NCBI GenBank assembly: GCA_964016885.1
Contig: OZ024744.1
Location: forward strand, 12,772,001 to 12,836,000
From: Eledone cirrhosa
Taxonomy: Eukaryota
Direction: 5' to 3'
DNA: 64,000 bases
In this document: one piece after another, positions 1-48,429 of the stretch
How positions within the stretch are numbered: position 1 is the stretch's first letter
How the letters are laid out: the number at the start of each line of letters is the position of its first letter
Notes under the pieces: generated by a model
What the model was told of the DNA's origin: nothing
What the model saw: only the letters and a program-made list of their open reading frames with translations
The model's database searches: none
Made by a program: the position numbers and the translations under genes

Positions 1-3000
1 GTGGTCATGTAGGTGTCACAACAAAAAGTACCCAGTCCACACTGTAAAGTAGTCATGTAGGTGTTACAACAAAAAGTACCCAGTCCACACTGTAAAGTGG
101 TCATGTAGGTGTCACAACAGAAAGTACCCCTCCACACTGTAACGTGGTTGTGTAGGTCTCACAACAAAAAGTACCCCTCCACACTGTAACGTGGTTGTGT
201 AGGTCTCACAACAAAAAGTACCCACTACACACTGTAAAGTGGTCATGTAGGTGTCATGACAAAAAGTACCCAGTACACACTGTAAAGTAGTCCTGTAGGA
301 GTCACAACAGAAAGTACCCAGTCCACACTGTAAAGTGGTCATGTAGGTGTTACAACAAAAAGTACCCAGTCCACACTGTAAAGTGGTTATGTAGGTGTCA
401 CAACAAAAAGTACCCAGTCCACACTGTAAAGTGCTCATGTAGGTATCACAACAAAAAGTACCCAGTCACACTGTAAAGTGGTCATGTAGGTGTCACAACA
501 GAAAGTACCCATCCACACTGTAACGTGGTTGTGTAGGTGTTACAACAAAAAGTACCCAGTCCACACTGTAAAGTGGTCATGTAGGTCTCACAACAGAAAG
601 TACCCAGTCCACACAGTAAAGTGGTCATGTAGGTCTCACAACAGAAAGTACCCAGTCCACACTGTAAAGTGGTTGTGTAGGTGTCACAACAGAAAGTACC
701 CAGTACACACTGTAAAGTGGTCATGTAGGTCTCAAAACAGAAAGTACCCAGTCCACACTGTAGCCTGGTCATATAGGTGTCACAACAGAAAGTACCCAGA
801 ACACACTGTAACGTGGTTATGTAGGTATCACAACAAAAAGTACCCAGTACACACTGTAAAGTGGTCATGTAGATGTTACAACAAAAAGTACCCAGTACAC
901 ACTGTAAAGTGGTCATGTAGGTATCACAACAAAAAGTACCCAGTCCACACTGTAACGTGGTTATGTAGGTATCACAACAAAAAGTACCCAGTCCACACTG
1001 TAACGTGGTCATGTAGGTGCCACAACAAAAAGTACACAGTCCACACTGTAAAGTAGTCATGTAGGTGTTACAACAAAAAGTACCCAGTACACACTGTAAA
1101 GTGGTTATGTAGGTATCACAACAAAAAGTACCCAGTACACACTGTAAAGTGGTCATGTAGGTGTCATGACAAAAAGTACCCAGTACACACTGTAAAGTGG
1201 TCATGTAGGTGTCATGACAAAAAGTACGCAGTACACACTATAAAGTAGTCCTGTAGGAGTCACAACAGAAAGTACCCAGTCCACACTGTAAAGTGGTCAT
1301 GTAGGTGTTACAACAAAAAGTACCCAGTACACACTGTAAAGTGGTTATGTAGGTATCACAACAAAAAGTACCCAGTCCACACTGTAACGTGGTTATGTAG
1401 GTGTCACAACAAAAAGTACCCAGTCCACACTGTAAAGTGGTCATGTAGGTATCACAACAAAAAGTACCCAGTCCACACTGTAAAGTGGTAATGTAGGTGT
1501 CACAACAGAAAGTACCCTTCCACACTGTAACGTGGTTGTGTAGGTCTCACAACAAAAAGTAACCAGTACACACTGTAAAGTGTTCATGTAGGTTGCACAA
1601 CAAAAAGTACCCAGTACACACTGTAAAGTGGTCATGTAGGTGTCATGACAAAAAGTACCCACTACACACTGTAAAGTGGTCATGTAGGTGTCATGAAAAA
1701 AAGTACCCAGTACACACTGTAAAGTAGTCCTGTAGGAGTCACAACAGAAAGTACCCAGTCCACACTGTAAAGTGGTCATGTAGGTGTTATAACAAAAAGT
1801 ACCCAGTACACACTGTAAAGTGGTCATGTAGGTATCACAACAAAAAGTACCCAGTACACACTGTAAAGTGGTCATGTAGGTATCAAAACAAAAAGTACGC
1901 AGTCCAGACTGTAAAGTAGTCCTGTAGGAGTCACAACAGAAAGTACCCATCCACACTGTAACATGGTTGTGTAGGTCTCACAACAAAAAGTACCCAGTAC
2001 ACACTGTAAAGTGTTCATGTAGGTGTCACAACAAAAAGTACCCAGTACACACTGTAACGTGGTTATGTAGGTATCACAACAAAAAGTACCCAGTACACAC
2101 TGTAAAGTGGTCATGTAGGTGTCATGACAAAAAGTACCCACTACACACTGTAAAGTAGTCCTGTAGGAGTCACAACAGAAAGTACCCAGTCCACACTGTA
2201 AAGTAGTCATGTAGGTGTTACAACAAAAAGTACCCAGTACACACTGTAAAGTGGTTATGTAGGTATCACAACAAAAAGTACCCAGTACACACTGTAAAGT
2301 GGTCATGTAGGTGTCATGACAAAAAGTACCCAGTACATACTATAAAGTAGTCCTGTAGGAGTCACAACAGAAAGTACCCAGTCCACACTGTAAAGTGGTC
2401 ATGTAGGTATCACAACAAAAAGTACCCAGTCCACACTGTAAAGTGGTAATGTAGGTGTCACAACAGAAAGTACCCATCCACACTCTAACATGGTTGTGTA
2501 GGTCTCACAACAAAAAGTACCCAGTACACACTGTAAAGTGTTCATGTAGGTGTCACAACAAAAAGTACCCAGTACACACTGTAACGTGGTTATGTAGGTA
2601 TCACAACAAAAATTACCCAGTACACACTGTAAAGTGGTCATGTAGGTGTCATGACAAAAAGTACCCACTACACACTGTAAAGTAGTCCTGTAGGAGTCAC
2701 AACAGAAAGTACCCAGTACACACTGTAAAGTAGTCCTGTAGGTGTCACAACAGAAAGTACCCAGTACACACTGTAAAGTGGACATGTAGGTGTCACAACA
2801 GAAAGTACACAGTACACACTGTAACGTGGTCATGTAGGTGTCACAACAAAGAGCACCCAGTCCACACTGTAAAGTGGTCATGTAGGTGTCACAACAAAAA
2901 GTACCCAGTCCACAATGTAAAGTAGTCATGTAGGTGTTACAACAAAAAGTACCCAGTCCACACTGTAAAGTGGTCATGTAGGTGTCACAACAGAAAGTAC

Positions 3001-6000
3001 CCCTCCACACTGTAACGTGGTTGTGTAGGTCTCACAACAAAAAGTACCCAGTACACACTGTAAAGTAGTCCTGTAGGAGTCACAACAGAAAGTACACACT
3101 CCACCCTATAAAATGGTCATGTAGGTGTTACAACAAAAAGTACCCAGTCCACACTGTAAAGTGGTTATGTAGGTGTCACAACAAAAAGTACCCAGTCCAC
3201 ACTGTAAAGTGCTCATGTAGGTATCACAACAAAAAGTACCCAGTCACACTGTAAAGTGGTCATGTAGGTGTCACAACAGAAAGTACCCATCCACACTGTA
3301 ACGTGGTTGTGTAGGTGTTACAACAAAAAGTACCCAGTCCACACTGTAAAGTGGTCATGTAGGTCTCACAACAGAAAGTACCCAGTCCACACAGTAAAGT
3401 GGTCATGTAGGTCTCACCACAGAAAGTACCCAGTCCACACTGTAAAGTGGTTGTGTAGGTGTCACAACAGAAAGTACCCAGTACACACTGTAAAGTGGTC
3501 ATATAGGTCTCAAAACAGAAAGTACCCAGTCCACACTGTAGCCTGGTCATATAGGTGTCACAAAAGAAAGTACCCAGAATACACTATAACGTGGTTATGT
3601 AGGTATCACAACAAAAAGTACCCAGTACACACTGTAAAGTGGTCATGTAGGTGTCATGACAAAAAGTACCCAGTACACACTGTAAAGTAGTCATGTAGGT
3701 GTCATGACAAAAAGTACCCAGTACACACTGTAACGTGGTTATGTAGGTGTCACAACAAAAAATACCCAGTACACACTGTAAAGTGGTTGTGTAGGTATCA
3801 CAACAGAAAGTACCCAGTACACACTGTAAAGTAGTCCTGTAGGTGTCACAACAGAAAGTACCCAGTCCACACTGTAAAGTGGTTGTGTAGGTATCACAAC
3901 AGAAAGTACGCAGTACACACTGTAAAGTAGTCCTGTAGGTGTCACAACAGAAAGTCCCCAGTACACACTGTAACGTGGTCATGTAGGTGTCACAGCAGAA
4001 AGTACCCAGTACACACTGTAACGTGGTTGTGTAGGTATCACAACAAAAAGTACCCAGTACACACTGTAAAGTGGTCATGTAGGTGTCATGACAAAAAGTA
4101 CCCACTACACACTGTAAAGTGGTCATGAAGGTGTCATGAAAAAAAGTACCCAGTACACACTGTAAAGTAGTCCTGTAGGAGTCACAACAAAAAGTACCCA
4201 GGCCACACTGTAAAGTGGTCATGTAGGTGTTACAACAAAAAGTACCCAGTACACACTGTAAAGTGGTCATGTAGGTATCACAACAAAAAGTACCCAGTCC
4301 ACACTGTAACGTGGTTATGTAGGTATCACAACAAAAAGTACCCAGTCCACACTGTAGCCTGGTCATATAGGTGTCACAACAGAAAGTACCCAGAACACAC
4401 TGTAAAGTGGTCATGTAGGTCTCACAACAGAAAGTACCCAGTCCACACTGTAGCCTGGTCATATAGGTGTCACAACAGAAAGTACCCAGAACACACTGTA
4501 ACGTGGTTATGTAGGTATCACAACAAAAAGTACCCAGTACACACTGTAAAGTGTTCATGTAGGTGTCACAACAAAAAGTACCCAGTACACACTGTAACGT
4601 GGTTATGTAGGTATCACAACAAAAAGTACCCAGTACACACTGTAACGTGGTTGTGTAGGTATCACAACAAAAGTACCCAGACAACACTGTAACGTGGTTG
4701 TGTAGGTATCACAACAGAAAGTATCCAGTCCACACTGTAAAGTGGTTGTGTAGGTATCACAACAGAAAGTACCCAGTACACACTGTAAAGTAGTCCTGTA
4801 GGTGTGACAACAGAAAGTACCCAGTACACACTGTAAAGTGGTCATGTAGGTGTCACAACAAAAAATACCCAGTCCACACTGTAAGGTGGCTGTGTAGGTG
4901 TCACAACAAAAAGTACCCAGTACACACTGTAAAGTGGTCATGTAGGTCTCACAACAGAAAGTACCCAGTCCACACTCTAAAGTGGTCATGTAGGTCTCAC
5001 AACAGAAAGTACCCAGTCCACACTGTAGCCTGGTCATATAGGTGTCACAACAGAAAGTACCCAGAACACACTGTAACGTGGTTATGTAGGTATCACAACA
5101 AAAAGTACCCAGTACACACTGTAAAGTGTTCATGTAGGTGTCACAACAAAAAGTACCCAGTACACACTGTAACGTGGTTATGTAGGTATCACAACAAAAA
5201 GTACCCAGTACAGACTGTAACGTGGTTGTGTAGGTATCACAACAAAAGTACCCAGTCCACACTGTAACGTGGTTGTGTAGGTATCACAACAGAAAGTACC
5301 CAGTCCACACTGTAAAGTGGTTGTGTAGGTATCACAACAGAAAGTACCCAGTACACACTGTAAAGTAGTCCTGTAGGTGTGACAACAGAAAGTACCCAGT
5401 ACACACTGTAAAGTGGTCATGTAGGTGTCACAACAAAAAATACCCAGTCCACACTGTAAGGTGGCTGTGTAGGTGTCACAACAAAAAGTACCCAGTACAC
5501 ACTGTAAAGTGGTCATGTAGGTCTCACAACAGAAAGTACCCAGTCCACACTGTAAAGTGGTCATGTAGGTCTCACAACAGAAAGTACCCAGTCCACACTG
5601 TAGCCTGGTCATATAGGTGTCACAACAGAAAGTACCCAGAACACACTGTAACGTGGTTATGTAGGTATCACAACAAAAAGTACCCAGTACACACTGTAAC
5701 GTGGTTATGTAGGTATCACAACAAAAAGTACCCAGTACACACTGTAACGTGGTTGTGTAGGTATCACAACAAAAGTACCCAGTCCACAATGTAACGTGGT
5801 TGTGTAGGTATCACAACAAAGTACCCAGTCAACACTGTAAAGTGGTTGTGTAGGTATCACAACAGAAAGTACCCAGTACACACTGTAAAGTAGTCCTGTA
5901 GGTGTGACAACAGAAAGTACCCAGTACACACTGTAAAGTGGTCATGTAGGTGTCACAACAAAAAATACCCAGTCCACACTGTAAGGTGGTTGTGTAGGTG

Positions 6001-9000
6001 TCACGACAAAAAGTACCCAGTACACACTGTAAAGTGGTCATGTAGGTCTCACAACAGAAAGTACCCAGTCCACACTGTAAAGTGGTCATGTAGGTCTCAC
6101 AACAGAAAGTACCCAGTCCACACTGTAGCCTGGTCATATAGGTGTCACAACAGAAAGTACCCAGAACACACTGTAACGTGGTTATGTAGGTATCACAACA
6201 AAAAGTACCCAGTACACACTGTAAAGTGGTCATGTAGGTGTCATGACAAAAAGTACCCAGTACACGCTGTAAAGTGGTCATGCAGGTGTCATGACAAAAA
6301 GTACCCAGTCCACACTGTAAAGTGGTCATGTAGGTATCACAACAAGAAGTACCCAGTCCACACTGTAACGTGGTTGTGTAGGTATCACAACAGAAAGTAG
6401 CCAATCCACACTGTAACGTGGTTGTGTAGGTATCACAACAGAAAGTACCCAGTCCACACTGTAACGTGGTTGTGTAGGTGTCACAACAAAAAGTACCCAG
6501 TCCACACTGTAAAGTGGTTATGTAGGTGTCACAACAAAAAGTACCCAGTCCACACTGTAACGTGGTTGTGTAGGTGTCACAACAAAAAGTACCCAGTACA
6601 CACTGTAAAGTGGTCATGTAGGTGTCACAACAAAAAGTACCCAGTCCACACTGTAACGTGGTTATGTAGGTGTCACAATAAAAAGAACCCAGTCCACGCT
6701 GTAAAGTGGTCATGTAGGTGTCACAACAAAAAGTACACAGTCCACACTGTAAAGTGGTCATGTAGGTGTCACAACAAAAAGTACCCAGTCCACACTGTAA
6801 CGTGGTTATGTAGGTGTCACAACTAAAAGTACCCAGTCCACACTGTAAAGTTGTCATGTAGGTATCACAACAAAAAGTACCCAGTCCACACTGTAAAGAG
6901 GTTGAGTAGGTCTCACAACAAAAAGTACCCAATCCACACTGAAACGTGGTTGTGTAGGTATCACAACAAAAAGTACCCAGTCCACACTGTAAAGTGGTCA
7001 TATAGGTGTCACAACAAAAAGTACCCAGTCCACACTGCAAAGTGGTCATGTAGGTATCACAACAAAAAGTACCCAGACACACTGTAAAGTGGTCATGTAG
7101 GTGTCACAACAAAAAGTACCCAGTCCACACTGTAACGGGGTTGTGTAGGTATCACAACAAAAAGTACCCAGTCCACACTGTAAAGTGGTCATGTAGGTGT
7201 CACAACAAAAAGTACCCAGTCCACACTGTAATGTGGTCATGTAGGTGTCACAACATAAGTACCCAGTCCACACTGTTACGTGGTTGTGTAGGTGTCACAA
7301 CAAAAAGTACCCAGTCCACACTGTAACGTGGTTGTGTAGGTATCACAACAGAAAGTACCCAATCCACACTGTAACGTGGTTGTGTAGGTATCACAACAGA
7401 AAGTACCCAGTCCACACTGTAACGTGGTTGTGTAGGTGTCACAACAAAAAGTACCCAGTCCACACTGTAAAGTGGTCATGTAGGTGTCACAACAAAAAGT
7501 ACCCAGTCCACACTGTAAAGTGGTCATGTAGGTGTCACAACAAAAAGTACCCAGTACACACTGTAAAGTGGTCATGTAGGTGTCACAACAAAAAGTACCC
7601 AGTCCACACTGTAACGTGGTTATGTAGGTGTCACAACAAAAAGAACCCAGTCCACACTGTAAAGTGGTCATGTAGGTGTCACAACAAAAAGTCAACAGTC
7701 CACACTGTAAAGTGGTCATGTAGGTGTCACAACAAAAAGTACCCGGTCCACACTGTAACGTGGTTATGTAGGTGTCACAACTAAAGGTACCCAGTCCACA
7801 CTGTAACGTGGTCATGTAGGTCTCACAACAGAAAGTACCCAGTCCACACTGTAGCCTGGTCATATAGGTGTCACAACAGAAAGTACCCAGTCCACACTGC
7901 AAAGTGGTCATGTAGGTATCACAACAAAAAGTACCCAGTCCACACTGTAAAGTGGTCATGTAGGTATCACAACAAAAAGTACCCAGTCCACACTGTAAAG
8001 TGGTCATGTAGGTATCACAACAAAAAGTACCCAGTCGACACTGTAAAGTGGTCATGTAGGTGTCACAACAAAAAGTACCCAGTCCACACTGTAACGTGGT
8101 TGTGTAGGTATCACAACAAAAAGTACCCAGTCCACATTTTAAAGTGGTCATGTAGGTGTCACAACAAAAATTACCCAGTCCACACTGTAACGTGGTTGTG
8201 TAGGTATCACAACAAAAAGTACCCAGTCCACACTGTAAAGTGGTCATGTAGGTGTCACAACAAAAAGTACCCAGTCCACACTGTAACGTGGTCATGTAGG
8301 TGTCACAACATAAGTACCCAGTCCACACTGTTACGTGGTTGTGTAGGTGTCACAACAAAAAGTATCCAGTCCACACTGTAACGTGGTTGTGTAGGTATCA
8401 CAACAGAAAGTAACCAATCCACACTGTAACGTGGTTGTGTAGGTATCACAACAGAAAGTACCCAGTCCACACTGTAAAGTGGTCATGTAGGTGTCACAAC
8501 AAAAAGTACCCAGTCCACACTGTAAAGTGGTCATGTAGGTGTCACAACAAAAACTACCAAGTCCACACTGTAACGTGGTCATGTAGGTGTCACAACATAA
8601 GTACCCAGTCCACACTGTTACGTGGTTGTGTAGGTGTCACAACAGAAGGTACCCAGAACACACTGTAACATGGTTGTGTAGGTATCACAACAGAAAGTAC
8701 CCAGTTCACACTGTAAAGAGGTTGTGTAGGTATCACAACAGAAAGTACCAAGTCCACAATGTAAAGTGGTCATGTAGGTGTCACAACAAAAAGTACCCAG
8801 TCCACACTGTAACGTGGTTGTGTAGGTAAAACAACAAAAAGTACCCAGTCCACACTTTAAAGTGGTCATGTAGGTGTAACAACAAAAAGTACCCAGTCCA
8901 CACTGTAAAGTGGTCATGTAGGTGTCACAACAAAAAGTACCCAGTCCACACTGTAACGTGGTTGTGTAGGTATCACAACAAAAAGTACCCAGTCCACACT

Positions 9001-27000: not shown

Positions 27001-30000
27001 TCATGTAGGTGTCACAACAAAAATTACCCAGTCCACACTGTAACGTGGTTGTGTAGGTATCACAACAAAAAGTACCCAGTCCACACTGTAAAGTGGTCAT
27101 GTAGGTGTCACAACAAAAAGTACCCAGTCCACACTGTAACGTGGTCATGTAGGTGTCACAACATAAGTACCCAGTCCACACTTACGTGGTTGTGTAGGTG
27201 TCACAACAAAAAGTACCCAGTCCACACTGTAACGTGGTTATGTAGGTATCACAACAGAAAGTACCCAATCCACACTGTAACGTGGTTGTGTAGGTATCAC
27301 AACAGAAAGTACCCAGTCCACACTGTAAAGTGGTCATGTAGGTATCACAACAGAAAGTACCAATCCACACTGTAACGTGGTTGTGTAGGTATCACAACAA
27401 AGAGTACCCAGTCCACTTTGTAAAGTGGTCATGTAGGTGCCACAACAAAAAGTACCCAGTACACACTGTAAAGTGGTCATGTAGGTTTCACAACAAAAAG
27501 CACCCAGTCCACACTGTAAAGTGGTCATGTAGATGTTACAACAGAAAGTACCCAGAACACACTGTAAAGTGGTTGTGTAGGTATCACAACAGAAAGTACC
27601 CAGTCCACACTGTAAAGTGGTCATGTAGGTGTCACAACAAAAAGTACCCAGTCCACACTGTAACGTGGTTGTGTAGGTAACACAACAAAAAGTACCCAGT
27701 CCACACTTTAAAGTGGTCATGTAGGTGTAACAACAAAAAGTACCCAGTCCACACTGTAAAGTGGTCATGTAGGTGTCACAACAAAAAGTACCCAGTCCAC
27801 ACTGTAACGTGGTTGTGTAGGTATCACAACAAAAAGTACCCAGTCCACACTGTAATGTGGTCATGTTGGTGTCAAAACATAAGTACCCAGTCCACACTGT
27901 AACGTGGTTGTGTAGGTGTCACAAGAAAAAGTACCCAGTCCACACTGTAAAGTGGTCATGTAGGTATCACAACAAGAAGTACCCAGTCCACACTGTAACG
28001 TGGTTGTGTAGGTATCACAACAGAAAGTACCCAATCCACACTGTAACGTGGTTGTGTAGGTATCACAACAGAAAGTACCCAGTCCACACTGTAACGTGGT
28101 TGTGTAGGTGTCACAACAAAAAGTACCCAGTCCACACTGTAAAGTGGTTATGTAGGTGTCACAACAAAAAGTACCCAGTCCACACTGTAACGTGGTTGTG
28201 TAGGTGTCACAACAAAAAGTACCCAGTACACACTGTAAAGTGGTCATGTAGGTGTCACAACAAAAAGTACCCAGTCGACACTGTAACGTGGTTATGTAGG
28301 TGTCACAATAAAAAGAACCCAGTCCACACTGTAAAGTGGTCATGTAGGTGTCACAACAAAAATACACAGTCCACACTGTAAAGTGGTCATGTAGGTGTCA
28401 CAACAAAAAGTACCCAGTCCACACTGTAACATGGTTATGTAGGTGTCACAACTAAAAGTACCCAGTCCACACTGTAAAGTTGTCATGTAGGTATCACAAC
28501 AAAAAGTACCCAGTCCACACTGTAAAGTGGTTGTGTAGGTATCACAACAAAAGTACCCAGTCCACACTGTAAAGAGGTTGAGTAGGTCTCACAACAAAAA
28601 GTACCCAATCCACACTGAAACGTGGTTGTGTAGGTATCACAACAAAAAGTACCCAGTCCACACTGCAAAGTGGTCATGTAGGTATCACAACAAAAAGTAC
28701 CCAGTCCACACTGTAAAGTGGTCATGTAGGTGTCACAACAAAAAGTACCCAGTCCACACTGCAAAGTGGTCATGTAGGTATCACAACAAAAAGTACCCAG
28801 ACACACTGTAAAGTGGTCATGTAGGTGTCACAACAAAAAGTACCCAGTCCACACTGTAACGTGGTTGTGTAGGTATCACAACAAAAAGTACCCAGTCCAC
28901 ACTGTAAAGTGGTCATGTAGGTGTCACAACAAAAAGTACCCAGTCCACACTGTAATGTGGTCATGTAGGTGTCACAACATAAGTACCCAGTCCACACTGT
29001 TACGTGGTTGTGTAGGTGTCACAACGAAAAGTACCCAGTCCACACTGTAACGTGGTTGTGTAGGTATCACAACAGAAAGTACCCAATCCACACTGTAACG
29101 TGGTTGTGTAGGTATCACAACAGAAAGTACCCAGTCCACACTGTAAAGTGGTCATGTAGGTATCACAACAAAAAGTACCCAGTCCACACTGTAAAGTGGT
29201 CATGTAGGTATCACAACAAAAAGTACCCAGTCCACACTGTAAAGTGGTCATGTAGGTGTCACAACAAAAAGTACCCAGTCCACACTGTAACGTGGTTGTG
29301 TAGGTATCACAACAAAAAGTACCCAGTCCACACTTTAAAGTGGTCATGTAGGTGTCACAACAAAAATTACCCAGTCCACACTGTAACGTGGTTGTGTAGG
29401 TATCACAAGAAAAAGTACCCAGTCCACACTGTAAAGTGGTCATGTAGGTGTCACAATAAAAAGTACCCAGTCCACACTGTAACGTGGTCATGTAGATGTC
29501 ACAACATAAGTACCCAGTCCACACTGTTACGTGGTTGTGTAGGTGTCAAAACAAAAAGTACCCAGTCCACACTGTAACGTGGTTGTGTAGGTATCACAAC
29601 AGAAAGTACCCAATCCACATTGTAACGTGGTTGTGCAGGTATCACAACAGAAAGTACCCAGTCCACACTGTAAAGTGGTCATGTAGGTATCACAACAGAA
29701 AGTACCAATCCACACTGTAACGTGGTTGTGTAGGTATCACAACAAAGAGTACCCAGTCCACTTTGTAAAGTGGTCATGTAGGTGTCACAACAAAAAGTAC
29801 CCAGTACACACTGTAAAGCGGTCATGTAGGTTTCACAACAAAAAGCACCCAGTCCACACTGTAAAGTGGTCATGTAGGTGTTACAACAGAAAGTACCCAG
29901 AACACACTGTAAAGTGGTTGTGTAGGTATCACAACAGAAAGTACCCAGTCCACACTGTAAAGTGGTCATGTAGGTGTCACAACAAAAAGTACCCAGTCCA

Positions 30001-33000
30001 CACTGCAAAGTGGTCATGTAGGTATCACAACAAAAAGTACCCAGACACACTGTAAAGTGGTCATGTAGGTGTCACAACAAAAAGTACCCAGTCCACACTG
30101 TAACGTGGTTGTGTAGGTATCACAACAAAAAGTACCCAGTCCACACTGTAAAGTGGTCATGTAGGTGTCACAACAAAAAGTACCCAGTCCACACTGTAAT
30201 GTGGTCATGTAGGTGTCACAACATAAGTACCCAGTCCACACTGTTACGTGGTTGTGTAGGTGTCACAACGAAAAGCACCCAGTCCACACTGTAACGTGGT
30301 TGTGTAGGTATCACAACAGAAAGTACCCAATCCACACTGTAACGTGGTTGTGTAGGTATCACAACAGAAAGTACCCAGTCCACACTGTAAAGTGGTCATG
30401 TAGGTATCACAACAAAAAGTACCCAGTCCACACTGTAAAGTGGTCATGTAGGTATCACAACAAAAAGTACCCAGTCCACACTGTAAAGTGGTCATGTAGG
30501 TGTCACAACAAAAAGTACCCAGTCCACACTGTAACGTGGTTGTGTAGGTATCACAACAAAAAGTACCCAGTCCACACTTTAAAGTGGTCATGTAGGTGTC
30601 ACAACAAAAATTACCCAGTCCACACTGTAACGTGGTTGTGTAGGTATCACAAGAAAAAGTACCCAGTCCACACTGTAAAGTGGTCATGTAGGTGTCACAA
30701 TAAAAAGTACCCAGTCCACACTGTAACGTGGTCATGTAGATGTCACAACATAAGTACCCAGTCCACACTGTTACGTGGTTGTGTAGGTGTCAAAACAAAA
30801 AGTACCCAGTCCACACTGTAACGTGGTTGTGTAGGTATCACAACAGAAAGTACCCAATCCACATTGTAACGTGGTTGTGCAGGTATCACAACAGAAAGTA
30901 CCCAGTCCACACTGTAAAGTGGTCATGTAGGTATCACAACAGAAAGTACCAATCCACACTGTAACGTGGTTGTGTAGGTATCACAACAAAGAGTACCCAG
31001 TCCACTTTGTAAAGTGGTCATGTAGGTGTCACAACAAAAAGTACCCAGTACACACTGTAAAGCGGTCATGTAGGTTTCACAACAAAAAGCACCCAGTCCA
31101 CACTGTAAAGTGGTCATGTAGGTGTTACAACAGAAAGTACCCAGAACACACTGTAAAGTGGTTGTGTAGGTATCACAACAGAAAGTACCCAGTCCACACT
31201 GTAAAGTGGTCATGTAGGTGTCACAACAAAAAGTACCCAGTCCACACTGTAAAGTGGTCATGTAGGTGTCACAACAAAAAGTACCCAGTCCACACTGTAA
31301 CGTGGTTGTGTAGGTAACACAACAAAAAGTACCCAGTCCACACTTTAAAGTGGTCATGTAGGTGTAACAACAAAAAGTACCCAGTCCACACTGTAAAGTG
31401 GTCATGTAGGTGTCACAACAAAAAGTACCCAGTCCACACTGTAACGTGGTTGTGTAGGTATCACAACAAAAAGTACCCAGTCCACACTGTAATGTGGTCA
31501 TGTTGGTGTCACAACATAAGTACCCAGTCCACACTGTAACGTGGTTGTGTAGGTGTCACAAGAAAAAGTACCCAGTCCACACTGTAAAGTGGTCATGTAG
31601 GTATCACACAAGAAGTACCCAGTCCACACTGTAACGTGGTTGTGTAGGTATCACAACAGAAAGTACCCAATCCACACTGTAACGTGGTTGTGTAGGTATC
31701 ACAACAGAAAGTACCCAGTCCACACTGTAACGTGGTTGTGTAGGTGTCACAACAAAAAGTACCCAGTCCACACTGTAAAGTGGTTATGTAGGTGTCACAA
31801 CAAAAAGTACCCAGTCCACACTGTAACGTGGTTGTGTAGGTGTCACAACAAAAAGTACCCAGTACACACTGTAAAGTGGTCATGTAGGTGTCACAACAAA
31901 AAGTACCCAGTCGACACTGTAACGTGGTTATGTAGGTGTCACAATAAAAAGAACCCAGTCCACACTGTAAAGTGGTCATGTAGGTGTCACAACAAAAAGT
32001 ACACAGTCCACACTGTAAAGTGGTCATGTAGGTGTCACAACAAAAATTACCCAGTCCACACTGTAACATGGTTATGTAGGTGTCACAACTAAAAGTACCC
32101 AGTCCACACTGTAAAGTTGTCATGTAGGTGTCACAACAAAAAGTACCCAGTCCACACTGTAACGTGGTTGTGTAGGTATCACAACAAAAAGTACCCAGTC
32201 CACACTTTAAAGTGGTCATGTAGGTGTCACAACAAAAATTACCCAGTCCACACTGTAACGTGGTTGTGTAGGTATCACAACAAAAAGTACCCAGTCCACA
32301 CTGTAAAGTGGTCATGTAGGTGTCACAACAAAGAGTACCCAGTCCACACTGTAACGTGGTCATGTAGGTGTCACAACATAAGTACCCAGTCCACACTGTT
32401 ACGTGGTTGTGTAGGTGTCACAACAAAAAGTACCCAGTCCACACTGTAACGTGGTCATGTAGGTGTCACAACAAAAAGTACCCAGTCCACACTGCAAAGT
32501 GGTCATGTAGGTATCACAACAAAAAGTACCCAGACACACTGTAAAGTGGTCATGTAGGTGTCACAACAAAAAGTACCCAGTCCACACTGTAACGTGGTTG
32601 TGTAGGTATCACAACAAAAAGTACCCAGTCCACACTGTAAAGTGGTCATGTAGGTGTCACAACAAAAAGTACCCAGTCCACACTGTAATGTGGTCATGTA
32701 GGTGTCACAACATAAGTACCCAGTCCACACTGTTACGTGGTTGTGTAGGTGTCACAACGAAAAGTACCCAGTCCACACTGTAACGTGGTTGTGTAGGTAT
32801 CACAACAGAAAGTACCCAATCCACACTGTAACGTGGTTGTGTAGGTATCACAACAGAAAGTACCCAGTCCACACTGTAAAGTGGTCATGTAGGTATCACA
32901 ACAAAAAGTACCCAGTCCACACTGTAAAGTGGTCATGTAGGTATCACAACAAAAAGTACCCAGTCCACACTGTAAAGTGGTCATGTAGGTGTCACAACAA

Positions 33001-36000
33001 AAAGTACCCAGTCCACACTGTAACGTGGTTGTGTAGGTATCACAACAAAAAGTACCCAGTCCACACTTTAAAGTGGTCATGTAGGTGTCACAACAAAAAT
33101 TACCCAGTCCACACTGTAACGTGGTTGTGTAGGTATCACAAGAAAAAGTACCCAGTCCACACTGTAAAGTGGTCATGTAGGTGTCACAATAAAAAGTACC
33201 CAGTCCACACTGTAACGTGGTCATGTAGATGTCACAACATAAGTACCCAGTCCACACTGTTACGTGGTTGTGTAGGTGTCAAAACAAAAAGTACCCAGTC
33301 CACACTGTAACGTGGTTGTGTAGGTATCACAACAGAAAGTACCCAATCCACATTGTAACGTGGTTGTGCAGGTATCACAACAGAAAGTACCCAGTCCACA
33401 CTGTAAAGTGGTCATGTAGGTATCACAACAGAAAGTACCAATCCACACTGTAACGTGGTTGTGTAGGTATCACAACAAAGAGTACCCAGTCCACTTTGTA
33501 AAGTGGTCATGTAGGTGTCACAACAAAAAGTACCCAGTACACACTGTAAAGCGGTCATGTAGGTTTCACAACAAAAAGCACCCAGTCCACACTGTAAAGT
33601 GGTCATGTAGGTGTTACAACAGAAAGTACCCAGAACACACTGTAAAGTGGTTGTGTAGGTATCACAACAGAAAGTACCCAGTCCACACTGTAAAGTGGTC
33701 ATGTAGGTGTCACAACAAAAAGTACCCAGTCCACACTGCAAAGTGGTCATGTAGGTATCACAACAAAAAGTACCCAGACACACTGTAAAGTGGTCATGTA
33801 GGTGTCACAACAAAAAGTACCCAGTCCACACTGTAACGTGGTTGTGTAGGTATCACAACAAAAAGTACCCAGTCCACACTGTAAAGTGGTCATGTAGGTG
33901 TCACAACAAAAAGTACCCAGTCCACACTGTAATGTGGTCATGTAGGTGTCACAACATAAGTACCCAGTCCACACTGTTACGTGGTTGTGTAGGTGTCACA
34001 ACGAAAAGCACCCAGTCCACACTGTAACGTGGTTGTGTAGGTATCACAACAGAAAGTACCCAATCCACACTGTAACGTGGTTGTGTAGGTATCACAACAG
34101 AAAGTACCCAGTCCACACTGTAAAGTGGTCATGTAGGTATCACAACAAAAAGTACCCAGTCCACACTGTAAAGTGGTCATGTAGGTATCACAACAAAAAG
34201 TACCCAGTCCACACTGTAAAGTGGTCATGTAGGTGTCACAACAAAAAGTACCCAGTCCACACTGTAACGTGGTTGTGTAGGTATCACAACAAAAAGTACC
34301 CAGTCCACACTTTAAAGTGGTCATGTAGGTGTCACAACAAAAATTACCCAGTCCACACTGTAACGTGGTTGTGTAGGTATCACAAGAAAAAGTACCCAGT
34401 CCACACTGTAAAGTGGTCATGTAGGTGTCACAATAAAAAGTACCCAGTCCACACTGTAACGTGGTCATGTAGATGTCACAACATAAGTACCCAGTCCACA
34501 CTGTTACGTGGTTGTGTAGGTGTCAAAACAAAAAGTACCCAGTCCACACTGTAACGTGGTTGTGTAGGTATCACAACAGAAAGTACCCAATCCACATTGT
34601 AACGTGGTTGTGCAGGTATCACAACAGAAAGTACCCAGTCCACACTGTAAAGTGGTCATGTAGGTATCACAACAGAAAGTACCAATCCACACTGTAACGT
34701 GGTTGTGTAGGTATCACAACAAAGAGTACCCAGTCCACTTTGTAAAGTGGTCATGTAGGTGTCACAACAAAAAGTACCCAGTACACACTGTAAAGCGGTC
34801 ATGTAGGTTTCACAACAAAAAGCACCCAGTCCACACTGTAAAGTGGTCATGTAGGTGTTACAACAGAAAGTACCCAGAACACACTGTAAAGTGGTTGTGT
34901 AGGTATCACAACAGAAAGTACCCAGTCCACACTGTAAAGTGGTCATGTAGGTGTCACAACAAAAAGTACCCAGTCCACACTGTAAAGTGGTCATGTAGGT
35001 GTCACAACAAAAAGTACCCAGTCCACACTGTAACGTGGTTGTGTAGGTAACACAACAAAAAGTACCCAGTCCACACTTTAAAGTGGTCATGTAGGTGTAA
35101 CAACAAAAAGTACCCAGTCCACACTGTAAAGTGGTCATGTAGGTGTCACAACAAAAAGTACCCAGTCCACACTGTAACGTGGTTGTGTAGGTATCACAAC
35201 AAAAAGTACCCAGTCCACACTGTAATGTGGTCATGTTGGTGTCACAACATAAGTACCCAGTCCACACTGTAACGTGGTTGTGTAGGTGTCACAAGAAAAA
35301 GTACCCAGTCCACACTGTAAAGTGGTCATGTAGGTATCACACAAGAAGTACCCAGTCCACACTGTAACGTGGTTGTGTAGGTATCACAACAGAAAGTACC
35401 CAATCCACACTGTAACGTGGTTGTGTAGGTATCACAACAGAAAGTACCCAGTCCACACTGTAACGTGGTTGTGTAGGTGTCACAACAAAAAGTACCCAGT
35501 CCACACTGTAAAGTGGTTATGTAGGTGTCACAACAAAAAGTACCCAGTCCACACTGTAACGTGGTTGTGTAGGTGTCACAACAAAAAGTACCCAGTACAC
35601 ACTGTAAAGTGGTCATGTAGGTGTCACAACAAAAAGTACCCAGTCGACACTGTAACGTGGTTATGTAGGTGTCACAATAAAAAGAACCCAGTCCACACTG
35701 TAAAGTGGTCATGTAGGTGTCACAACAAAAAGTACACAGTCCACACTGTAAAGTGGTCATGTAGGTGTCACAACAAAAATTACCCAGTCCACACTGTAAC
35801 ATGGTTATGTAGGTGTCACAACTAAAAGTACCCAGTCCACACTGTAAAGTTGTCATGTAGGTGTCACAACAAAAAGTACCCAGTCCACACTGTAACGTGG
35901 TTGTGTAGGTATCACAACAAAAAGTACCCAGTCCACACTTTAAAGTGGTCATGTAGGTGTCACAACAAAAATTACCCAGTCCACACTGTAACGTGGTTGT

Positions 36001-39000
36001 GTAGGTATCACAACAAAAAGTACCCAGTCCACACTGTAAAGTGGTCATGTAGGTGTCACAACAAAGAGTACCCAGTCCACACTGTAACGTGGTCATGTAG
36101 GTGTCACAACATAAGTACCCAGTCCACACTGTTACGTGGTTGTGTAGGTGTCACAACAAAAAGTACCCAGTCCACACTGTAACGTGGTTGTGTAGGTATC
36201 ACAACAGAAAGTACCCAATCCACATTGTAACGTGGTTGTGTAGGTATCACAACAGAAAGTACCCAGTCCACACTGTAAAGTGGTCATGTAGGTATCACAA
36301 CAGAAAGTACCAATCCACACTGTAACGTGGTTGTGTAGGTATCACAACAAAGAGTACCCAGTCCACTTTGTAAAGTGGTCATGTAGGTGTCACAACAAAA
36401 AGTACCCAGTACACACTGTAAAGTGGTCATGTAGGTTTCACAACAAAAAGCACCCAGTCCACACTGTAAAGTGGTCATGTAGGTGTTACAACAGAAAGTA
36501 CCCAGAACACACTGTAAAGTGGTTGTGTAGGTATCACAACAGAAAGTACCCAGTCCACACTGTAAAGTGGTCATGTAGGTGTCACAACAAAAAGTACCCA
36601 GTCCACACTGTAACGTGGTTGTGTAGGTAACACAACAAAAAGTACCCAGTCCACACTTTAAAGTGGTCATGTAGGTGTAACAACAAAAAGTACCCAGTCC
36701 ACACTGTAAAGTGGTCATGTAGGTGTCACAACAAAAAGTACCCAGTCCACACTGTAACGTGGTTGTGTAGGTATCACAACAAAAATACCCAGTCCACACT
36801 GTAATGTGGTCATGTTGGTGTCACAACATAAGTACCCAGTCCACACTGTAACGTGGTTGTGTAGGTGTCACAAGAAAAAGTACCCCGTCCACACTGTAAA
36901 GTGGTCATGTAGGTATCACACAAGAAGTACCCAGTCCACACTGTAACGTGGTTGTGTAGGTATCACAACAGAAAGTACCCAATCCACACTGTAACGTGGT
37001 TGTGTAGGTATCACAACAGAAAGTACCCAGCCTACACTGTAACGTGGTTGTGTAGGTGTCACAACAAAAAGTACCCAGTCCACACTGTAAAGTGGTTATG
37101 TAGGTGTCACAACAAAAAGTACCCAGTCCACACTGTAACGTGGTTGTGTAGGTGTCACAACAAAAAGTACCCAGTACACACTGTAAAGTGGTCATGTAGG
37201 TGTCACAACAAAAAGTACCCAGTCGACACTGTAACGTGGTTATGTAGGTGTCACAATAAAAAGAAACCAGTCCACACTGTAAAGTGGTCATGTAGGTGTC
37301 ACAACAAAAAGTACACAGTCCACACTGTAAAGTGGTCATGTAGGTGTCACAACAAAAAGTACCCAGTCCACACTGTAACATGGTTATGTAGGTCTCACAA
37401 CTAAAAGTACCCAGTCCACACTGTAAAGTTGTCATGTAGGTATCACAACAAAAAGTACCCAGTCCACACTGTAAAGTGGTTGTGTAGGTATCACAACAAA
37501 AGTACCCAGTCCACACTGTAAAGAGGTTGAGTAGGTCTCACAACAAAAAGTACCCAATCCACACTGAAACGTGGTTATGTAGGTATCACAACAAAAAGTA
37601 CCCAGTCCACACTGCAAAGTGGTCATGTAGGTATCACAACAAAAAGTACCCAGTCCACACTGTAAAGTGGTCATGTAGGTGTCACAACAAAAAGTACCCA
37701 GTCCACACTGCAAAGTGGTCATGTAGGTATCACAACAAAAAGTACCCAGACACACTGTAAAGTGGTCATGTAGGTGTCACAACAAAAAGTACCCAGTCCA
37801 CACTGTAACGTGGTTGTGTAGGTATCACAACAAAAAGTACCCAGTCCACACTGTAAAGTGGTCATGTAGGTGTCACAACAAAAAGTACCCAGTCCACACT
37901 GTAATGTGGTCATGTAGGTGTCACAACATAAGTACCCAGTCCACACTGTTACGTGGTTGTGTAGGTGTCACAACAAAAAGTACCCAGTCCACACTGTAAC
38001 GTGGTTGTGTAGGTATCACAACAGAAAGTACCCAATCCACACTGTAACGTGGTTGTGTAGGTATCACAACAGAAAGTACCCAGTCCACACTGTAACGTGG
38101 TTGTGTAGGTGTCACAACAAAAAGTACCCAGTCCACACTGTAAAGTGGTCATGTAGGTGTCACAACAAAAAGTACCCAGTCCACACTGTAAAGTGGTCAT
38201 GTAGGTGTCACAACAAAAAGTACCCAGTACACACTGTAAAGTGGTCATGTAGGTGTCACAACAAAAAGTACCCAGTCCACACTGTAACGTGGTTATGTAG
38301 GTGTCACAACAAAAAGAACCCAGTCCACACTGTAAAGTGGTCATGCAGGTGTCACAACAAAAAGTCCACAGTCCACACTGTAAAGTGGTCATGTAGGTGT
38401 CACAACAAAAAGTACCCAGTCCACACTGTAACGTGGTTATGTAGGTGTCACAACTAAAGGCACCCAGTCCACACTGTAAAGTTGTCATGTAGGTATCACA
38501 ACAAAAAGTACCCAGTCCACACTGTAACGTGGTCATGTAGGTGCCACAACAAAAAGTACCCAGTACACACTGTAAAGTGGTCATGTAGGTCTCACAACAG
38601 AAAGTACCCAGTCCACACTGTAGCCTGGTCATATAGGTGTCACAACAGAAAGTACCCAGTCCACACTGCAAAGTGGTCATGCAGGTATCACAACAAAAAG
38701 TACCCAGTCCACACTGTAAAGTGGTTATGTAGGTATCACAACAAAAAGTACCCAGTCCACACTGTAAAGTGGTCATGTAGGTATCACAACAAAAAGTACC
38801 CAGTCGACACTGTAAAGTGGTCATGTAGGTGTCACAACAAAAAGTACCCAGTCCACACTGTAACGTGGTTGTGTAGGTATCACAACAAAAAGTACCCAGT
38901 CCACATTTTAAAGTGGTCATGTAGGTGTCACAACAAAAATTACCCAGTCCACACTGTAACGTGGTTGTGTAGGTATCACAACAAAAAGTACCCAGTCCAC

Positions 39001-40422
39001 ACTGTAAAGTGGTCATGTAGGTGTCACAACAAAAAGTACCCAGTCCACACTGTAACGTGGTCATGTAGGTGTCACAACATAAGTACCCAGTCCACACTGT
39101 TACGTGGTTGTGTAGGTGTCACAACAAAAAGTACCCAGTCCACACTGTAACGTGGTTGTGTAGGTATCACAACAGAAAGTACCCAATCCACACTGTAACG
39201 TGGTTGTGTAGGTATCACAACAGAAAGTACCCAGTCCACACTGTAAAGTGGTCATGTAGGTGTCACAACAAAAAGTACCCAGTCCACACTGTAAAGTGGT
39301 CATGTAGGTGTCACAACAAAAACTACCAAGTCCACACTGTAACGTGGTCATGTAGGTGTCACAACATAAGTACCCAGTCCACACTGTTACGTGGTTGTGT
39401 AGGTGTCACAACAGAAGGTACCCAGAACACACTGTAACATGGTTGTGTAGGTATCACAACAGAAAGTACCCAGTTCACACTGTAAAGAGGTTGTGTAGGT
39501 ATCACAACAGAAAGTACCAAGTCCACAATGTAAAGTGGTCATGTAGGTATCACAACAGAAAGTACCCAGTCCACACTGTAAAGTGGTTATGTAGGTATCA
39601 CAACAAAAGTACCCAGTCCACACTGTAAAGAGGTTGTGTCGGTGTCACAATAAAAAGTACCCAGTCCACACTGTAAAGTGGTCATGTAGGTATCACAACA
39701 GAAAGTACCAACCACACTGTAAAGTGGTTATGTAGGTGTCACAACAAAAAGTACCCAGTCCACACTGTAAAGTGGTCATGTAGGTGTCAAAACAAAAAGT
39801 ACCCAGTCCACACTATAAAGTGGTCATCTAGGTGTCACAACAAAAAGTACCCAGCCCACACTGTAAAGTGGTCATGTAGGTATCACAACAAAAACACCCA
39901 GTCCACACTGTAAAGTGGTCATGTAGCTGTCACAACAAAAAGTACCCAGCCCACACTGTAAAGTTGTCATGTAGGTGTCACAACAAAAAGGACCCAGTCC
40001 ACACTGTAAAGTGGTCATGTAGGTGTCACAACAGAAAGTACCCAGTCCACACCGTAAAGTGGTCATGTAGGTGTCACAACAAAAAGTACCCAGTACACAC
40101 TGTATAGTGGTCATGTAGGTGTCACAACAAAATGTACCCAGTCAACACTGTAAAGTGTCATGTAGGTGTCACAACAGAAAGTACCCAGTACACACTGTAA
40201 AGTGGTCATGAAGGTGTCATGAAAAAAAGTACCCAGTTCACACTGTAACGTGTTTGTGTAGGTGCCACAACAAAAAGTACCCAGTCCACACTGTAACGTG
40301 GTTGTGTAGGTATCACAACAAAAAGTACCCAGTCCACACTGTAAAGTTGTCATGTAGGTGTCACAACAAAAAGTACCCAGTCCACACTGTAACGTGGTTG
40401 TGTAGGTGTCACAACAGAGTAC
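1..40422. repeat. 48-bp tandem satellite array (about 840 units, open at the window start)
   Basis: Continuous head-to-tail copies of GTGGT(CA/TG/TA)TGTAGGT(G/A/C)TCACAACA(A/G)AAAGTACCCAGT(C/A)CACACTGTAA(A/C), with scattered 47-bp units. The array ends abruptly at ...GTGTCACAACAGAGTAC (~40422). Confidence 0.99.
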
Positions 40423-40691
40423 ATTTTATTGTGGCACTAGATAGGTTGTCATATGCTAGGCCAGACAGAAGAGGATACTCAGAACCTACACTGTCTCTAT
40501 TCAATTGCCAAACACTGTATCTCCTGGTCTCTTGCCATATTTAGTGTCACCTAAGATGGGTCTTTTGTATTATGGCATATTACCAGTCAACTTGGCCTCA
40601 ATGGAACAAACAACACACAAGGTTTAAATATTCCAATTTGTAGGTTTTCTTGATGTTTACATCTTTCAATGATGCACTTTGGCGAAACATT

Positions 40692-40858
40692 ACACACACA
40701 CATGGTGGACTCGTGTACAGTTTCTGTCTACTAAATTCCACACATAAGGAATTAGTTAATCCAAAAGTTTGGTAGAAGATACTTTCCCAAAGCATACCAT
40801 GAGATCAAACCTGAAACCATGTGGTTGTGAAGCAAATTTGATCACCACACAGCCATGC
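40692..40858 (-). mobile_element. Degenerate tRNA-derived SINE (octopus-type) fragment
   Basis: Plus strand reads (CA)n tail ...CAGTTTCTGTCTACTAAATTCCAC...GTAGAAGATACTTTCCCAAAG...AACCATGTGGTTGTGAAGCAAA...ACCACACAGCCA. This resembles the reverse complement of a common octopus SINE (recognised from memory, not searched). Confidence 0.6.
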
Positions 40859-40974
40859 TACTATCCAAGATCTATCAGTAATCACTACTTATATGTAGTA
40901 CCTCGAACCTCACATCTATTGCCCCTTGTACGTGGTATCTCCATCAGTTCTGTGTGTTCCAGGTGTTTGATTAA

Positions 40975-41485
40975 TGGAACAGACTGCCTGTGAAATTAAT
41001 TTATAAGCAGTGGCGTGCAGAGGCGGGGACGATGGTGCGTTGGCCCAGGGCATCCTTTGGTGGAAAAGAACTTAATAAATTTGATTGATTTATATTAAAA
41101 TCGAATAAAGTGTTTATTTCATGTTTCTTCTGTGTTTATATATTCAAAATGTTTTCCTTAATATTTCTCAGTATATTAGGCCTTATACTTGAGTCTTTGG
41201 GGCATACAATCAAGATTTGCCCCGGGCATCACCAGAGCTCTGCACACCGCTGCGTATAAGTGACTAAGGATTCTACAGACATGTGTATCCTTAATGTAGT
41301 TCTCAGGGAGATTCAGCAGGACACAATATGTGACAAGGTTGGTCCTTTGAAACACAGGTACAATACATTTTTGTAAACTGGAGCAACATGATATAAAAGT
41401 GTCTTATTCAGGAAAACTGGGCGCTACCAGGAATCGTACTCACAACCTGTCAGCTGAACACCCTACCCAATAAGCAACACACCTT
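40975..41485 (-). mobile_element. tRNA-derived SINE, interrupted by a MITE
   Basis: Reverse complement of the family at 42377 (shared ACTGGAGCAA...AAAGTGTCTT.. block, B-box remnant GGAATCGTACTC). The body continues on both sides of the 41008-41252 insertion. Confidence 0.7.
41008..41252. mobile_element. Non-autonomous hAT-type DNA transposon (MITE), 245 bp
   Basis: 15-bp TIRs CAGTGGCGTGCAGAG / CTCTGCACACCGCTG (13/15 match). Flanking 8-mers TTTATAAG and CGTATAAG form an imperfect TSD. A subterminal GCCC(A/C)GGGCATC motif occurs near both ends. Confidence 0.8.
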
Positions 41486-41664
41486 CACATTGCTCCAAAT
41501 AAAAACCCAAGAACGGTAATTTTTATACAAGACTGGTGTTTCAGTTTTAGCAATGTTTCTGTTACCATTTCAACATAACTCACACCTGCTTTTAAGGAAT
41601 ATAAAGAAGACAATTAGAGAATTGGTTGTTAATTATGATAATCTTGATAAAAATGTTCTGAGTA

Positions 41665-41838
41665 TACATAGTAAAGTGGTTGGCAATGGGAAGGGTATCC
41701 AGCCATAAAAACCAAGCCTGATATGGAACATATGAGTAAGATGTGGTCATCTGACCTATCTAGCCTCAGAAGATGACAATCTGTCTAACCCATGCAAGTA
41801 AGAAGTAGTAGTAATAGTAGTAACAGCAGCAGCAGTAT
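41665..41838 (+). mobile_element. Degenerate RTE-type 3' tail fragment with (TAG)n/(CAG)n microsatellite
   Basis: GTAAAGTGGTTGGCAATGGGAAGGGTATCCAGCCATAAAAACC ... GTCTAACCCATGC matches the 3' UTR of the RTE copy at 53480-53600. Confidence 0.6.
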
Positions 41839-41864
41839 TACAAAATCTGTAAATTAATACTTAC

Positions 41865-42014
41865 AGCTTCTTTTGATTTACTTGTTTTCAACTCTTTAAT
41901 AATTTGAATCAATTTAAAGATCTCTGAACAAGACTGTTTATACAATGTCAGGTCTTGGTGGGCATCCCGGTGGTCAACTTCGTCTTCTTCAGCATAAAAC
42001 AAAGACATCTTTTC
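41865..42014 (-). CDS. THOC5: THO complex subunit 5 homolog, coding exon 2 (150 nt, phase 0/0)
   Basis: Translates EKMSLFYAEEDEVDHRDAHQDLTLYKQSCSEIFKLIQIIKELKTSKSKEA, which aligns by eye to the vertebrate THOC5 N-terminus ([42 protein letters not shown], recalled). Bounded by acceptor TTTTTTGCAG and donor GTAAGT. Confidence 0.88.
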
Positions 42015-42376
42015 CTGCAAAAAACATTGAGGAATTTAGTATTTTACAGTTACCTTTCTTGTTTCTATCTCCCCTATTTACACACAAAACCCACACACCT
42101 ACACCAACACCCACACACCCACAAACTTGCACCTACACCTACACAATGTTTTCTCCTATGCCACCCTTAATGTGATCCTTTTGTGAGCTCTTGTGGTTAA
42201 CAAAGGAAACATTAGATTTATTGTGTCATCCCTGCATTACTGAGCACAGCTCTGTGCACCTTGGCTATGTGCGGTCTTGTTGTTTCTATTATATTGTGAG
42301 TACTCTTAATAGTGTATGTGTAGTGCCTAGTAGTGCTAGTTTCTCTATATATTTGAAAGTCTTGGGGATTTGGTGA

Positions 42377-42520
42377 AGGCACATGGCTTAGTGGTTAGAG
42401 CATTGGCCTTGCAATCGAAAGGTTGTGAATTCAATTCTCAGACCGGGTGATGTGTTGTTTCCTTGAGCAAGACACTTTACTTCACATTGCTCCAGTTTAC
42501 TCAGCTGTAGAAATGAGATG
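42377..42520 (+). mobile_element. tRNA-derived SINE 5' part
   Basis: A-box TGGCTTAGTGG and B-box-like GAATTCAATTC, followed by the conserved CCTTGAGCAAGACACTTTACTTCACATTGCTCCAGT block. Confidence 0.8.
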
Positions 42521-42542
42521 ATAGGGCTGGGGTCCCTATCAT

Positions 42543-42670
42543 TCCACTGCAAAAAACCACCCAGCCCACACTGTAAAGTGGACGTGTAGGCGCCACAAAA
42601 AAAAAGCACCCAGAACTCACTATGAGGTTGGTGTTAGGAAGGGCATCCAGCTGTAGAAATCAAGCCAAAA
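42543..42670 (+). mobile_element. Isolated RTE 3' UTR fragment, inverted relative to the adjacent element
   Basis: ACCCAGCCCACACTGTAAAGTGGACGTGTAGGCGCCAC...GTTGGTGTTAGGAAGGGCATCCAGCTGTAGAAATCAAGCCAAAA is nearly identical to 51115-51235 and complementary to 42785-42938. Confidence 0.85.
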
Positions 42671-46052: not shown

Positions 46053-46299
46053 TTATTAATTCAGGGTTGCTCCATTTATTCTCAGCTCATCCATACATAA
46101 TGGTAGGAAAATTCAGGGCTAGAAGAACAGTGGTGGTGGTAATAATGGCAGGGTGTGTTGGGCTGGGACGGGGGAGGAGAGAGTTAGGTAGTAACAGAAA
46201 TGGCAGGGTTTGTAGGGGTTGGTAGTGGGTGAGAGGGGCATGCTGAGGTTTGATTGGTCGAATAGGCTATGGTGGTGTGAGGGAAATTGTGAGGTAGGT

Positions 46300-46990: not shown

Positions 46991-46992
46991 GT

Positions 46993-48393: not shown

Positions 48394-48429
48394 TATATGT
48401 TGAGTATAAGTGGAAATCTTGCTATATTC

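Follow-up and report, generated by a model that had tools for sequence, protein, structure and literature searches.

A young tandem array, probably derived from a LINE 3' untranslated region, in a presumed THOC5 intron of the octopus Eledone cirrhosa

Results

THOC5 exons and introns

The subject of this work is a 48-bp satellite array and the adjoining start of THOC5, the gene of a general export factor, in a stretch of 64,000 nucleotides from the octopus Eledone cirrhosa (assembly GCA_964016885.1, contig OZ024744.1, positions 12,772,001 to 12,836,000 of the forward strand). This whole stretch is hereafter called the window, and positions are counted from its first letter. A tblastn search (PAM30 matrix) with the Octopus bimaculoides THOC5 model P0002 placed amino acids 16-65 at 42014-41865 on the minus strand (92% identity, E = 3e-39), and amino acids 1-15 of the same query matched 60335-60291, also on the minus strand (93%, E = 8e-9). 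The first coding exon thus covers at least 60291-60335 and the second, of 150 bp and in phase 0 at both ends, lies at 41865-42014; "exon 2" is used here for the second coding exon, and an additional non-coding exon may lie upstream. Exon 2 translates without a stop and matched THOC5 of O. bimaculoides (92%) and O. vulgaris (90%), with three THOC5 hits among seven candidates (90-92% identity), all three carrying PF09766. Human THOC5 matched it as well (E = 1.2e-5). Judged by these similarities, both exons are orthologous to THOC5/FMIP. Both are followed by a GTAAGT donor, and the acceptor of exon 2 consists of a T-run followed by CAG.

Intron 1 (42015-60290, minus strand) measures 18,276 bp. 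On its transcribed strand, a 22-nt stretch at 49130-49152 resembles a micro-exon, with a strong acceptor rich in pyrimidines on one side and a GTAAG donor on the other; because its inclusion would shift the frame and the homologs lack it, it may represent a poison exon or have arisen by chance. The O. bimaculoides models P0002 and P0003 diverge after about amino acid 480, and P0003 contains a segment matching the LINE (long interspersed nuclear element) tail found in this window, so that this model probably holds a mis-annotated repeat.

Beyond the exon 2 donor at 41864, intron 2 begins with 1448 bp of unique DNA and small dispersed repeats (40417-41864, minus strand), after which the satellite starts; the donor therefore opens toward the array, as had been proposed in an earlier reading made from the sequence alone. 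That reading had also reported no further THOC5 exon in 40422-41864, and this result extended to the whole window: amino acids 66-654 gave no credible match on either of its strands, whether by tblastn with two matrices, by short-peptide scans or by a pattern combining an acceptor with the start of the next exon. The sensitivity of the search is indicated by the recovery of the 15-amino-acid exon at E = 8e-9. Of the 38 short-peptide matches at 6/8 identity, none mapped to position 41864 or lower on the minus strand; these matches were scattered or located in repeats and had the look of chance or of repeats. At the looser threshold of 5/6, 28 minus-strand matches occurred at or below 41864, and the 12 displayed corresponded to a single peptide recurring in the array. 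Intron 2 would accordingly span at least 41.8 kb, most of it satellite, and the array triples the distance between the start codon and position 1 of the window.

Structure and composition of the satellite array

The array occupies positions 1-40416 and runs past the left end of the window. It was detected by Tandem Repeats Finder as one unbroken tandem array (period 48, 844.5 copies, 90% matches), and cutting it at a fixed anchor yielded 842 monomers. Anchor spacings were 48 bp in 732 cases, 47 bp in 102, 46 bp in 7 and 93 bp in a single case, which corresponds to a double unit; since nearly all spacings were thus 46-48 bp, the array contains no foreign insertion. Two monomer types, A (465 of the 842) and B (275), accounted for most units, the other 102 belonging to neither. 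In total, 206 distinct monomers were counted, with a mean difference of 4.94 positions out of 48 between monomers. The locus is therefore a long, homogenised, head-to-tail array. Strict alternation of A and B, which would have been the relic of a dimer period, was absent from it (AA 249, BA 147, AB 136, BB 113), and on neither strand did three monomers fold better than shuffled sequences (z = 0.05 and 0.44). To the right, the array ends in a truncated monomer at 40416.

Higher-order repeats of 26, 59-60, 78 and 97 monomers are nested within the array, and an exact tandem duplication of 3685 bp was found, with copies starting at 28755 and 32488. This tandem duplicate (28755-36173) is built from three 26-monomer blocks; it may have arisen very recently, or else be a product of faulty assembly. 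Divergence between blocks ranged from 0 to 9.5%; among sampled 20-monomer blocks, 19 out of 28 had a partner at most 2% away, six of them identical. These observations point to recent growth of the array by kilobase-scale duplication. The left end had a different composition, with singleton monomers making up 37-57% of the units in 38-4300 versus 0-23% elsewhere, and with block partners 5-10% apart. It may be an older layer, or may reflect the nearness of the far edge of the array.

Three mutually unrelated minisatellites were also observed in intron 1 (46804-46991, 48434-48833 and 58087-58511, with periods of 72, 60 and about 116 bp, respectively), and tandem growth is thus common within this gene.

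Relationship of the monomer to a LINE 3' untranslated region

A query made of two monomers retrieved five dispersed copies outside the array, with 78-83% identity over 70-97 bp (E from 1e-23 to 2e-13). In all four aligned LINE ends, this motif was located between the stop of the open reading frame and the tail, that is, in the 3' untranslated region (UTR), to which the monomer is homologous by sequence. The closest relative of the array among the dispersed copies was the UTR dimer (47155-47253) of a LINE fragment in intron 1, called R2 here (46994-48133, minus strand, sense to THOC5), in which 91 of 97 aligned bases were identical to an A+B pair. The first unit of this dimer resembles type A and the second type B; against it, A+B scored 142, A+A 138, B+B 122 and B+A 118. 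Identity between dispersed copies was 73.5-83.5% in five out of six pairs, the remaining pair (R1 and R3, described below) reaching 94%. Because the dispersed copies differ more from one another than the monomers do, we infer that the change went from LINE to satellite. These data bear out the earlier proposal that the units stem from a LINE 3' UTR, as well as its statement on orientation: the units stand in LINE sense on the plus strand, and the THOC5 pre-mRNA would be antisense to them.

Splicing of exon 2 in public sequencing runs

Contigs from four of seven public runs (X1, X2, X4 and X5) were placed on 40340-42360, to which the results of this section refer. X1 and X2 come from one sample, possibly the source of the assembly itself, and X5 is a restriction-site-associated DNA (RAD) run. 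X1 and X2 contigs were genomic, with no difference across exon 2 and its flanks. One X4 contig of 2217 nt fitted only 41864-42014, without any difference, and departed from the genome at both splice sites of exon 2, the match being preceded by 234 nt and followed by 1832 nt. This downstream length may be compared with the 1767-1914 nt of coding sequence after amino acid 65 that are predicted from homologs, and the extra matching base at 41864 is compatible with a next exon opening on an alanine codon, as in the homolog. Moreover, 8 of 30 bins, all intronic, had no depth in X4, while X1 covered 29 bins and X2 all 30. X4 thus resembles mature RNA, and the 2217-nt contig would be a spliced THOC5 mRNA. 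Orphan exons, one of the circumstances that would have undone the earlier reading, are unlikely given that this contig is exon-only and continues for 1832 nt. If the 234-nt leader is contiguous in the genome, what we take to be an ETS-like site (60540-60552) lies about 20 bases upstream of its start, which fits a housekeeping promoter.

At the array junction (40416), no bridging contig was found among 24 of 27,535 pieces, 24 of 1095 loose ends and 15 of 61 joints. In X1 and X2, summed depths on the satellite motif exceeded the depth of the exon contig by a factor of roughly 4e5 to 9e5. In X4 the factor relative to the mRNA contig was around 2900, and the motif depth was mostly of the dispersed type. 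Such sums are not copy numbers, as unique depth differed threefold between the two runs of one sample, and they are rough and carry no information on strand or nascent RNA. Array-specific variants of the monomer are C at position 11 and T at position 40, in the register used here. The dispersed-type (LINE) letter made up 81% of X4 depth at window position 40374, which is occupied by T in 702 of 732 array monomers; the corresponding share was 56% in X5 and 46-49% in X1 and X2. For 40393, a position with C in 302 of 732 array monomers, letters other than A made up 1% of depth in X4, compared with 31% in X5 and 8% in both X1 and X2. By these shares, the RNA-like run X4 is depleted in array-type sequence.

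Processing signals and transit time across the array

Processing signals were distributed very unevenly between the strands of the array. AATAAA was absent from the strand transcribed with THOC5 and present 21 times on the other, and sites one change away numbered 0 and 598, respectively. Donor-like sites (at least 5/7 matches) were found once on the transcribed strand and 430 times on the other. As the transcribed strand is devoid of poly(A) signals and nearly devoid of strong donors, antisense appears to be the less harmful orientation. With RNA polymerase elongating at 1-3 kb/min, the array would add a predicted 13-40 min to transcription of the gene, although a cold-water animal could be slower.

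Other repeats in the window

Besides R2, four LINE copies were found in intron 1. R1 (42670-45892, minus strand, sense to THOC5) retains broken endonuclease and reverse transcriptase (RT) pieces, and its 3' UTR bears the two-unit motif at 42832-42937. R3 is a 3' fragment (50761-51345, plus strand, antisense to THOC5) with the motif dimer at 51081-51186, and R4 (51542-53645, plus strand, antisense) has an open RT frame of 575 amino acids, motif units at 53397-53484 and a GAT microsatellite tail at about 53623. R5 (55123-57941, plus strand, antisense) is an older, decayed copy of a related family, in which no close match to the 48-bp motif was found. Altogether, intron 1 contains at least 5759 bp of LINE sequence antisense to THOC5 and 4103 bp in sense. 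The tails of R1 (42677-43229) and R3 (50770-51342) form an inverted pair with 89% identity over 575 bp, which could give a long duplex in the pre-mRNA and a possible substrate for A-to-I editing. Folding of four UTR motif copies was compared with that of shuffled sequences (z from -0.45 to -1.52) and did not stand out.

The LINEs that would have donated the motif match the Pfam domains Exo_endo_phos_2 and RVT_1, and their best structure matches were proteins of R2 and L1 elements. These LINEs are putatively assigned to the RTE clade, in that the domains and the microsatellite tail agree with octopus RTE elements (PMC9115989); the label is also drawn from the earlier reading and from sequence motifs. 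A repeat resembling a SINE (short interspersed nuclear element) (42370-42690, plus strand) carries the motif at 42552-42621 together with the LINE tail, and appears by eye to have a tRNA-like head; a search of 38000-64000 against Rfam gave no match at the gathering score. The common motif and tail suggest that this element and the LINE family are a LINE/SINE partner pair.

Other repeats were of different types. A frame of 162 amino acids at 49638-50126 (minus strand) belongs to another LINE family, distant from the first, and represents its 3' part (29% identity to the R4 RT over 137 amino acids; no Pfam hit), and a decayed fragment at 59250-59780 (plus strand; no Pfam hit) looks by eye like what we take to be the terminal restriction-like endonuclease part of a site-specific non-LTR (long terminal repeat) element. 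Upstream of THOC5, the segments 61570-62190 and 62860-63400 resemble, by eye, a non-autonomous Helitron-type element and an LTR.

Discussion

A young satellite tolerated within a spliced gene

We consider it likely that the array is a young LINE-tail satellite and a tolerated, functionless block in intron 2 of a THOC5 gene that is apparently still spliced. The two-unit motif of a LINE 3' UTR would have given rise to the array by repeated tandem duplication, with growth by unequal exchange or a similar duplication process that is recent or ongoing. RNA polymerase II would traverse the array, and the intron would then be spliced out and degraded. The antisense orientation may have persisted because the transcript thereby gained not a single poly(A) signal and hardly any strong donor. 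The array would in that case presumably be neutral.

Several observations weigh against parts of this interpretation. The lead of the A+B pair over A+A in the comparison with R2 is just four points, and the LINE tail that normally lies 3' of the motif is missing after 40416, growth in place inside one element being thus a candidate mode, not a demonstrated one. Orientation is a single case, with a prior of one half, and the transcribed strand of intron 1 carries 14 AATAAA sites, so that such sites are not always harmful. As for splicing, no credible exon 3 was found in the window, the 1832 nt at the end of the X4 contig were ascribed to THOC5 by their length alone, and there is no record of the library type of X4. 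To these may be added the lack of a bridging contig at 40416 among the pieces, loose ends and joints listed above.

If our interpretation is correct, this single window records the birth of a satellite from a LINE tail, with the donor dimer, two descendant monomer types and layered block duplications side by side, and a housekeeping gene would have absorbed at least 40 kb of satellite and yet remained spliced. The locus may also be of use for the annotation of cephalopod repeats. The literature yielded no account of such a satellite in octopus, as judged from titles and the starts of abstracts, with subscription papers mostly outside the coverage and the combination of THOC5 and octopus not searched.

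Assembly error and array length

A misjoin of the contig at 40416, or an inflated array length, would leave THOC5 with an ordinary intron 2. The junction without a bridging contig, the exact tandem duplicate of 3685 bp and the truncated last monomer without a LINE tail would all be compatible with this. However, contigs built from short reads are expected to stop at a satellite anyway, and 206 distinct monomers, with block divergences from 0 to 9.5%, are unlike an assembly error. Moreover, flank contigs at 40809-41089, 41310-41718 and 41842-42261 showed no difference from the assembly and had equal depth in X1 and X2, although these runs may be from the assembly's own sample. We therefore regard an artefact of this kind as unlikely.

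It is quite improbable, in our view, that the window shows just the margin of a far more extensive satellite block, of hundreds of kilobases to megabases and with a possible chromosomal role, which would make this a case of true intron gigantism in need of special transcription handling. The array does continue past the end of the window and has nested higher-order repeats, and the summed depth on the motif is very high in X1 and X2. Nevertheless, this depth is mostly of dispersed-type letters, and the singleton-rich left 4 kb, with its diverged blocks, may mark the far edge. In addition, a housekeeping export gene is unlike the testis-only Y-loop genes of Drosophila, in which introns reach megabases and transcription takes 80-90 h, as described in the available part of the source (PMC6508621). 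For intron 2, the lower bound would here be 41.8 kb. The sequence-only reading had called this intron giant: a long satellite does follow the exon 2 donor, but the term is overstated by that published megabase standard.

Small RNAs and expression timing

The array might also act through its RNA. Intron 2 would then be a source of antisense Piwi-interacting RNAs (piRNAs) against the LINE family, possibly with feedback through THO: some THOC5 pre-mRNA in the octopus germline or brain would escape splicing and yield piRNAs against this family and the SINEs, linking THO dosage to transposon control. The pre-mRNA would indeed be antisense to the LINE motif. Of the 26-nt stretches of the array, 4.7% have an exact counterpart in a local UTR, a share that rises to 21.6% when up to two mismatches are allowed. 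PIWI genes are present in octopus, O. bimaculoides being among the molluscs whose PIWI sequences have been analysed (PMC6128900), and the satellite-derived piRNA tapiR1 of Aedes is reported to silence in trans through loose pairing (bioRxiv 10.1101/2020.01.15.907428). The roughly 1% of X4 depth that is non-A at 40393 belongs to a class that includes the array variant.

Against this, the 26-nt matches were almost all to R2, with at most 1.2% within two mismatches for R1, R3, R4 and the SINE, and intron 1 already contains 5.8 kb of antisense LINE sequence, whole tails included. The depletion of array-type letters in X4 also argues against this role, although mature RNA, which this run resembles, is no guide to nascent transcripts. 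In mammals and insects, according to the part of PMC7782496 that is available, piRNA output correlates with unspliced or long-first-exon transcripts, introns being removed before processing; here, 234 nt precede exon 2 in the exon-only X4 contig, which comes from one run and leaves room for a minor unspliced form. The Aedes locus is apparently a transcription unit of its own, separate from the neighbouring gene (bioRxiv 10.1101/2020.01.15.907428), and according to PMC12479628 a survey of molluscs, O. bimaculoides among them, detected no small interfering RNA (siRNA) pathway. In Drosophila, Thoc5 is a protein loaded on piRNA cluster RNA through Cutoff (PMC4826399); since it acts as a protein, this role gives no grounds for expecting piRNAs from an intron of the THOC5 gene itself. 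The silencing by piRNAs or siRNAs suggested in the earlier reading hence appears very unlikely, both as a function of the intron and in the specific germline or brain form given above.

Most doubtful of all is that the array was kept as a delay or damper of THOC5 expression (intron timer or dosage control), as had also been suggested: intron-length timers are discussed for Drosophila genes (PMC6508621) and the distance from the start codon to position 1 is tripled, but Y-loops take 80-90 h where 13-40 min are predicted here, the array is young and continues to change by kilobase-sized steps, and a THOC5 gene of at least 60 kb is long, not extreme, as roughly 14% of all O. bimaculoides genes are longer than 30 kb in the data given in PMC7222433.

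Comparison with known systems

The Drosophila Y-loop genes kl-3 and kl-5, as presented in PMC6508621, are similar to the locus described here in that satellite separates small exons and would have to be traversed by the polymerase. They differ from it in scale, sequence and expression: megabases of simple satellite transcribed only in spermatocytes, versus 40 kb seen here of a complex, LINE-derived 48-mer in the gene of a general export factor. Aedes tapiR1/2 (bioRxiv 10.1101/2020.01.15.907428) likewise offer the picture of a satellite beside or within a gene, with potential trans-acting small RNAs; that locus is ancient and conserved, is apparently transcribed separately from its neighbouring gene and has sequenced piRNAs, whereas the octopus array is young and known from DNA.

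Compared by description, the donor LINEs are like the octopus element RTE-2_OV (PMC9115989), which has a single open reading frame with endonuclease and RT, a zinc finger and a microsatellite 3' end; the available part of that source makes no mention of a 48-bp UTR dimer or of a satellite derived from octopus RTE LINEs.

The octopus array is another case of a known class, the satellites that arise from the 3' ends of retroelements. The examples given in the consulted part of PMC9659126 include pea PisTR-A, from tandem repeats in the Ogre 3' UTR, the cetacean common satellite, from the L1 3' end, Drosophila 18HT, from the HeT-A/TART 3' UTR, and chicken HinfI, from CR1. As in these cases, the octopus monomer matches the 3' non-coding end of an element, and, as in PisTR-A, the unit was already a short tandem in the element before amplification. 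The present array differs from the cases listed there in having an RTE-like LINE as its putative donor, a class to which none of them is ascribed, and an octopus as its host, in being located within a protein-coding gene, and in that both ancestral units apparently survive as monomer types.

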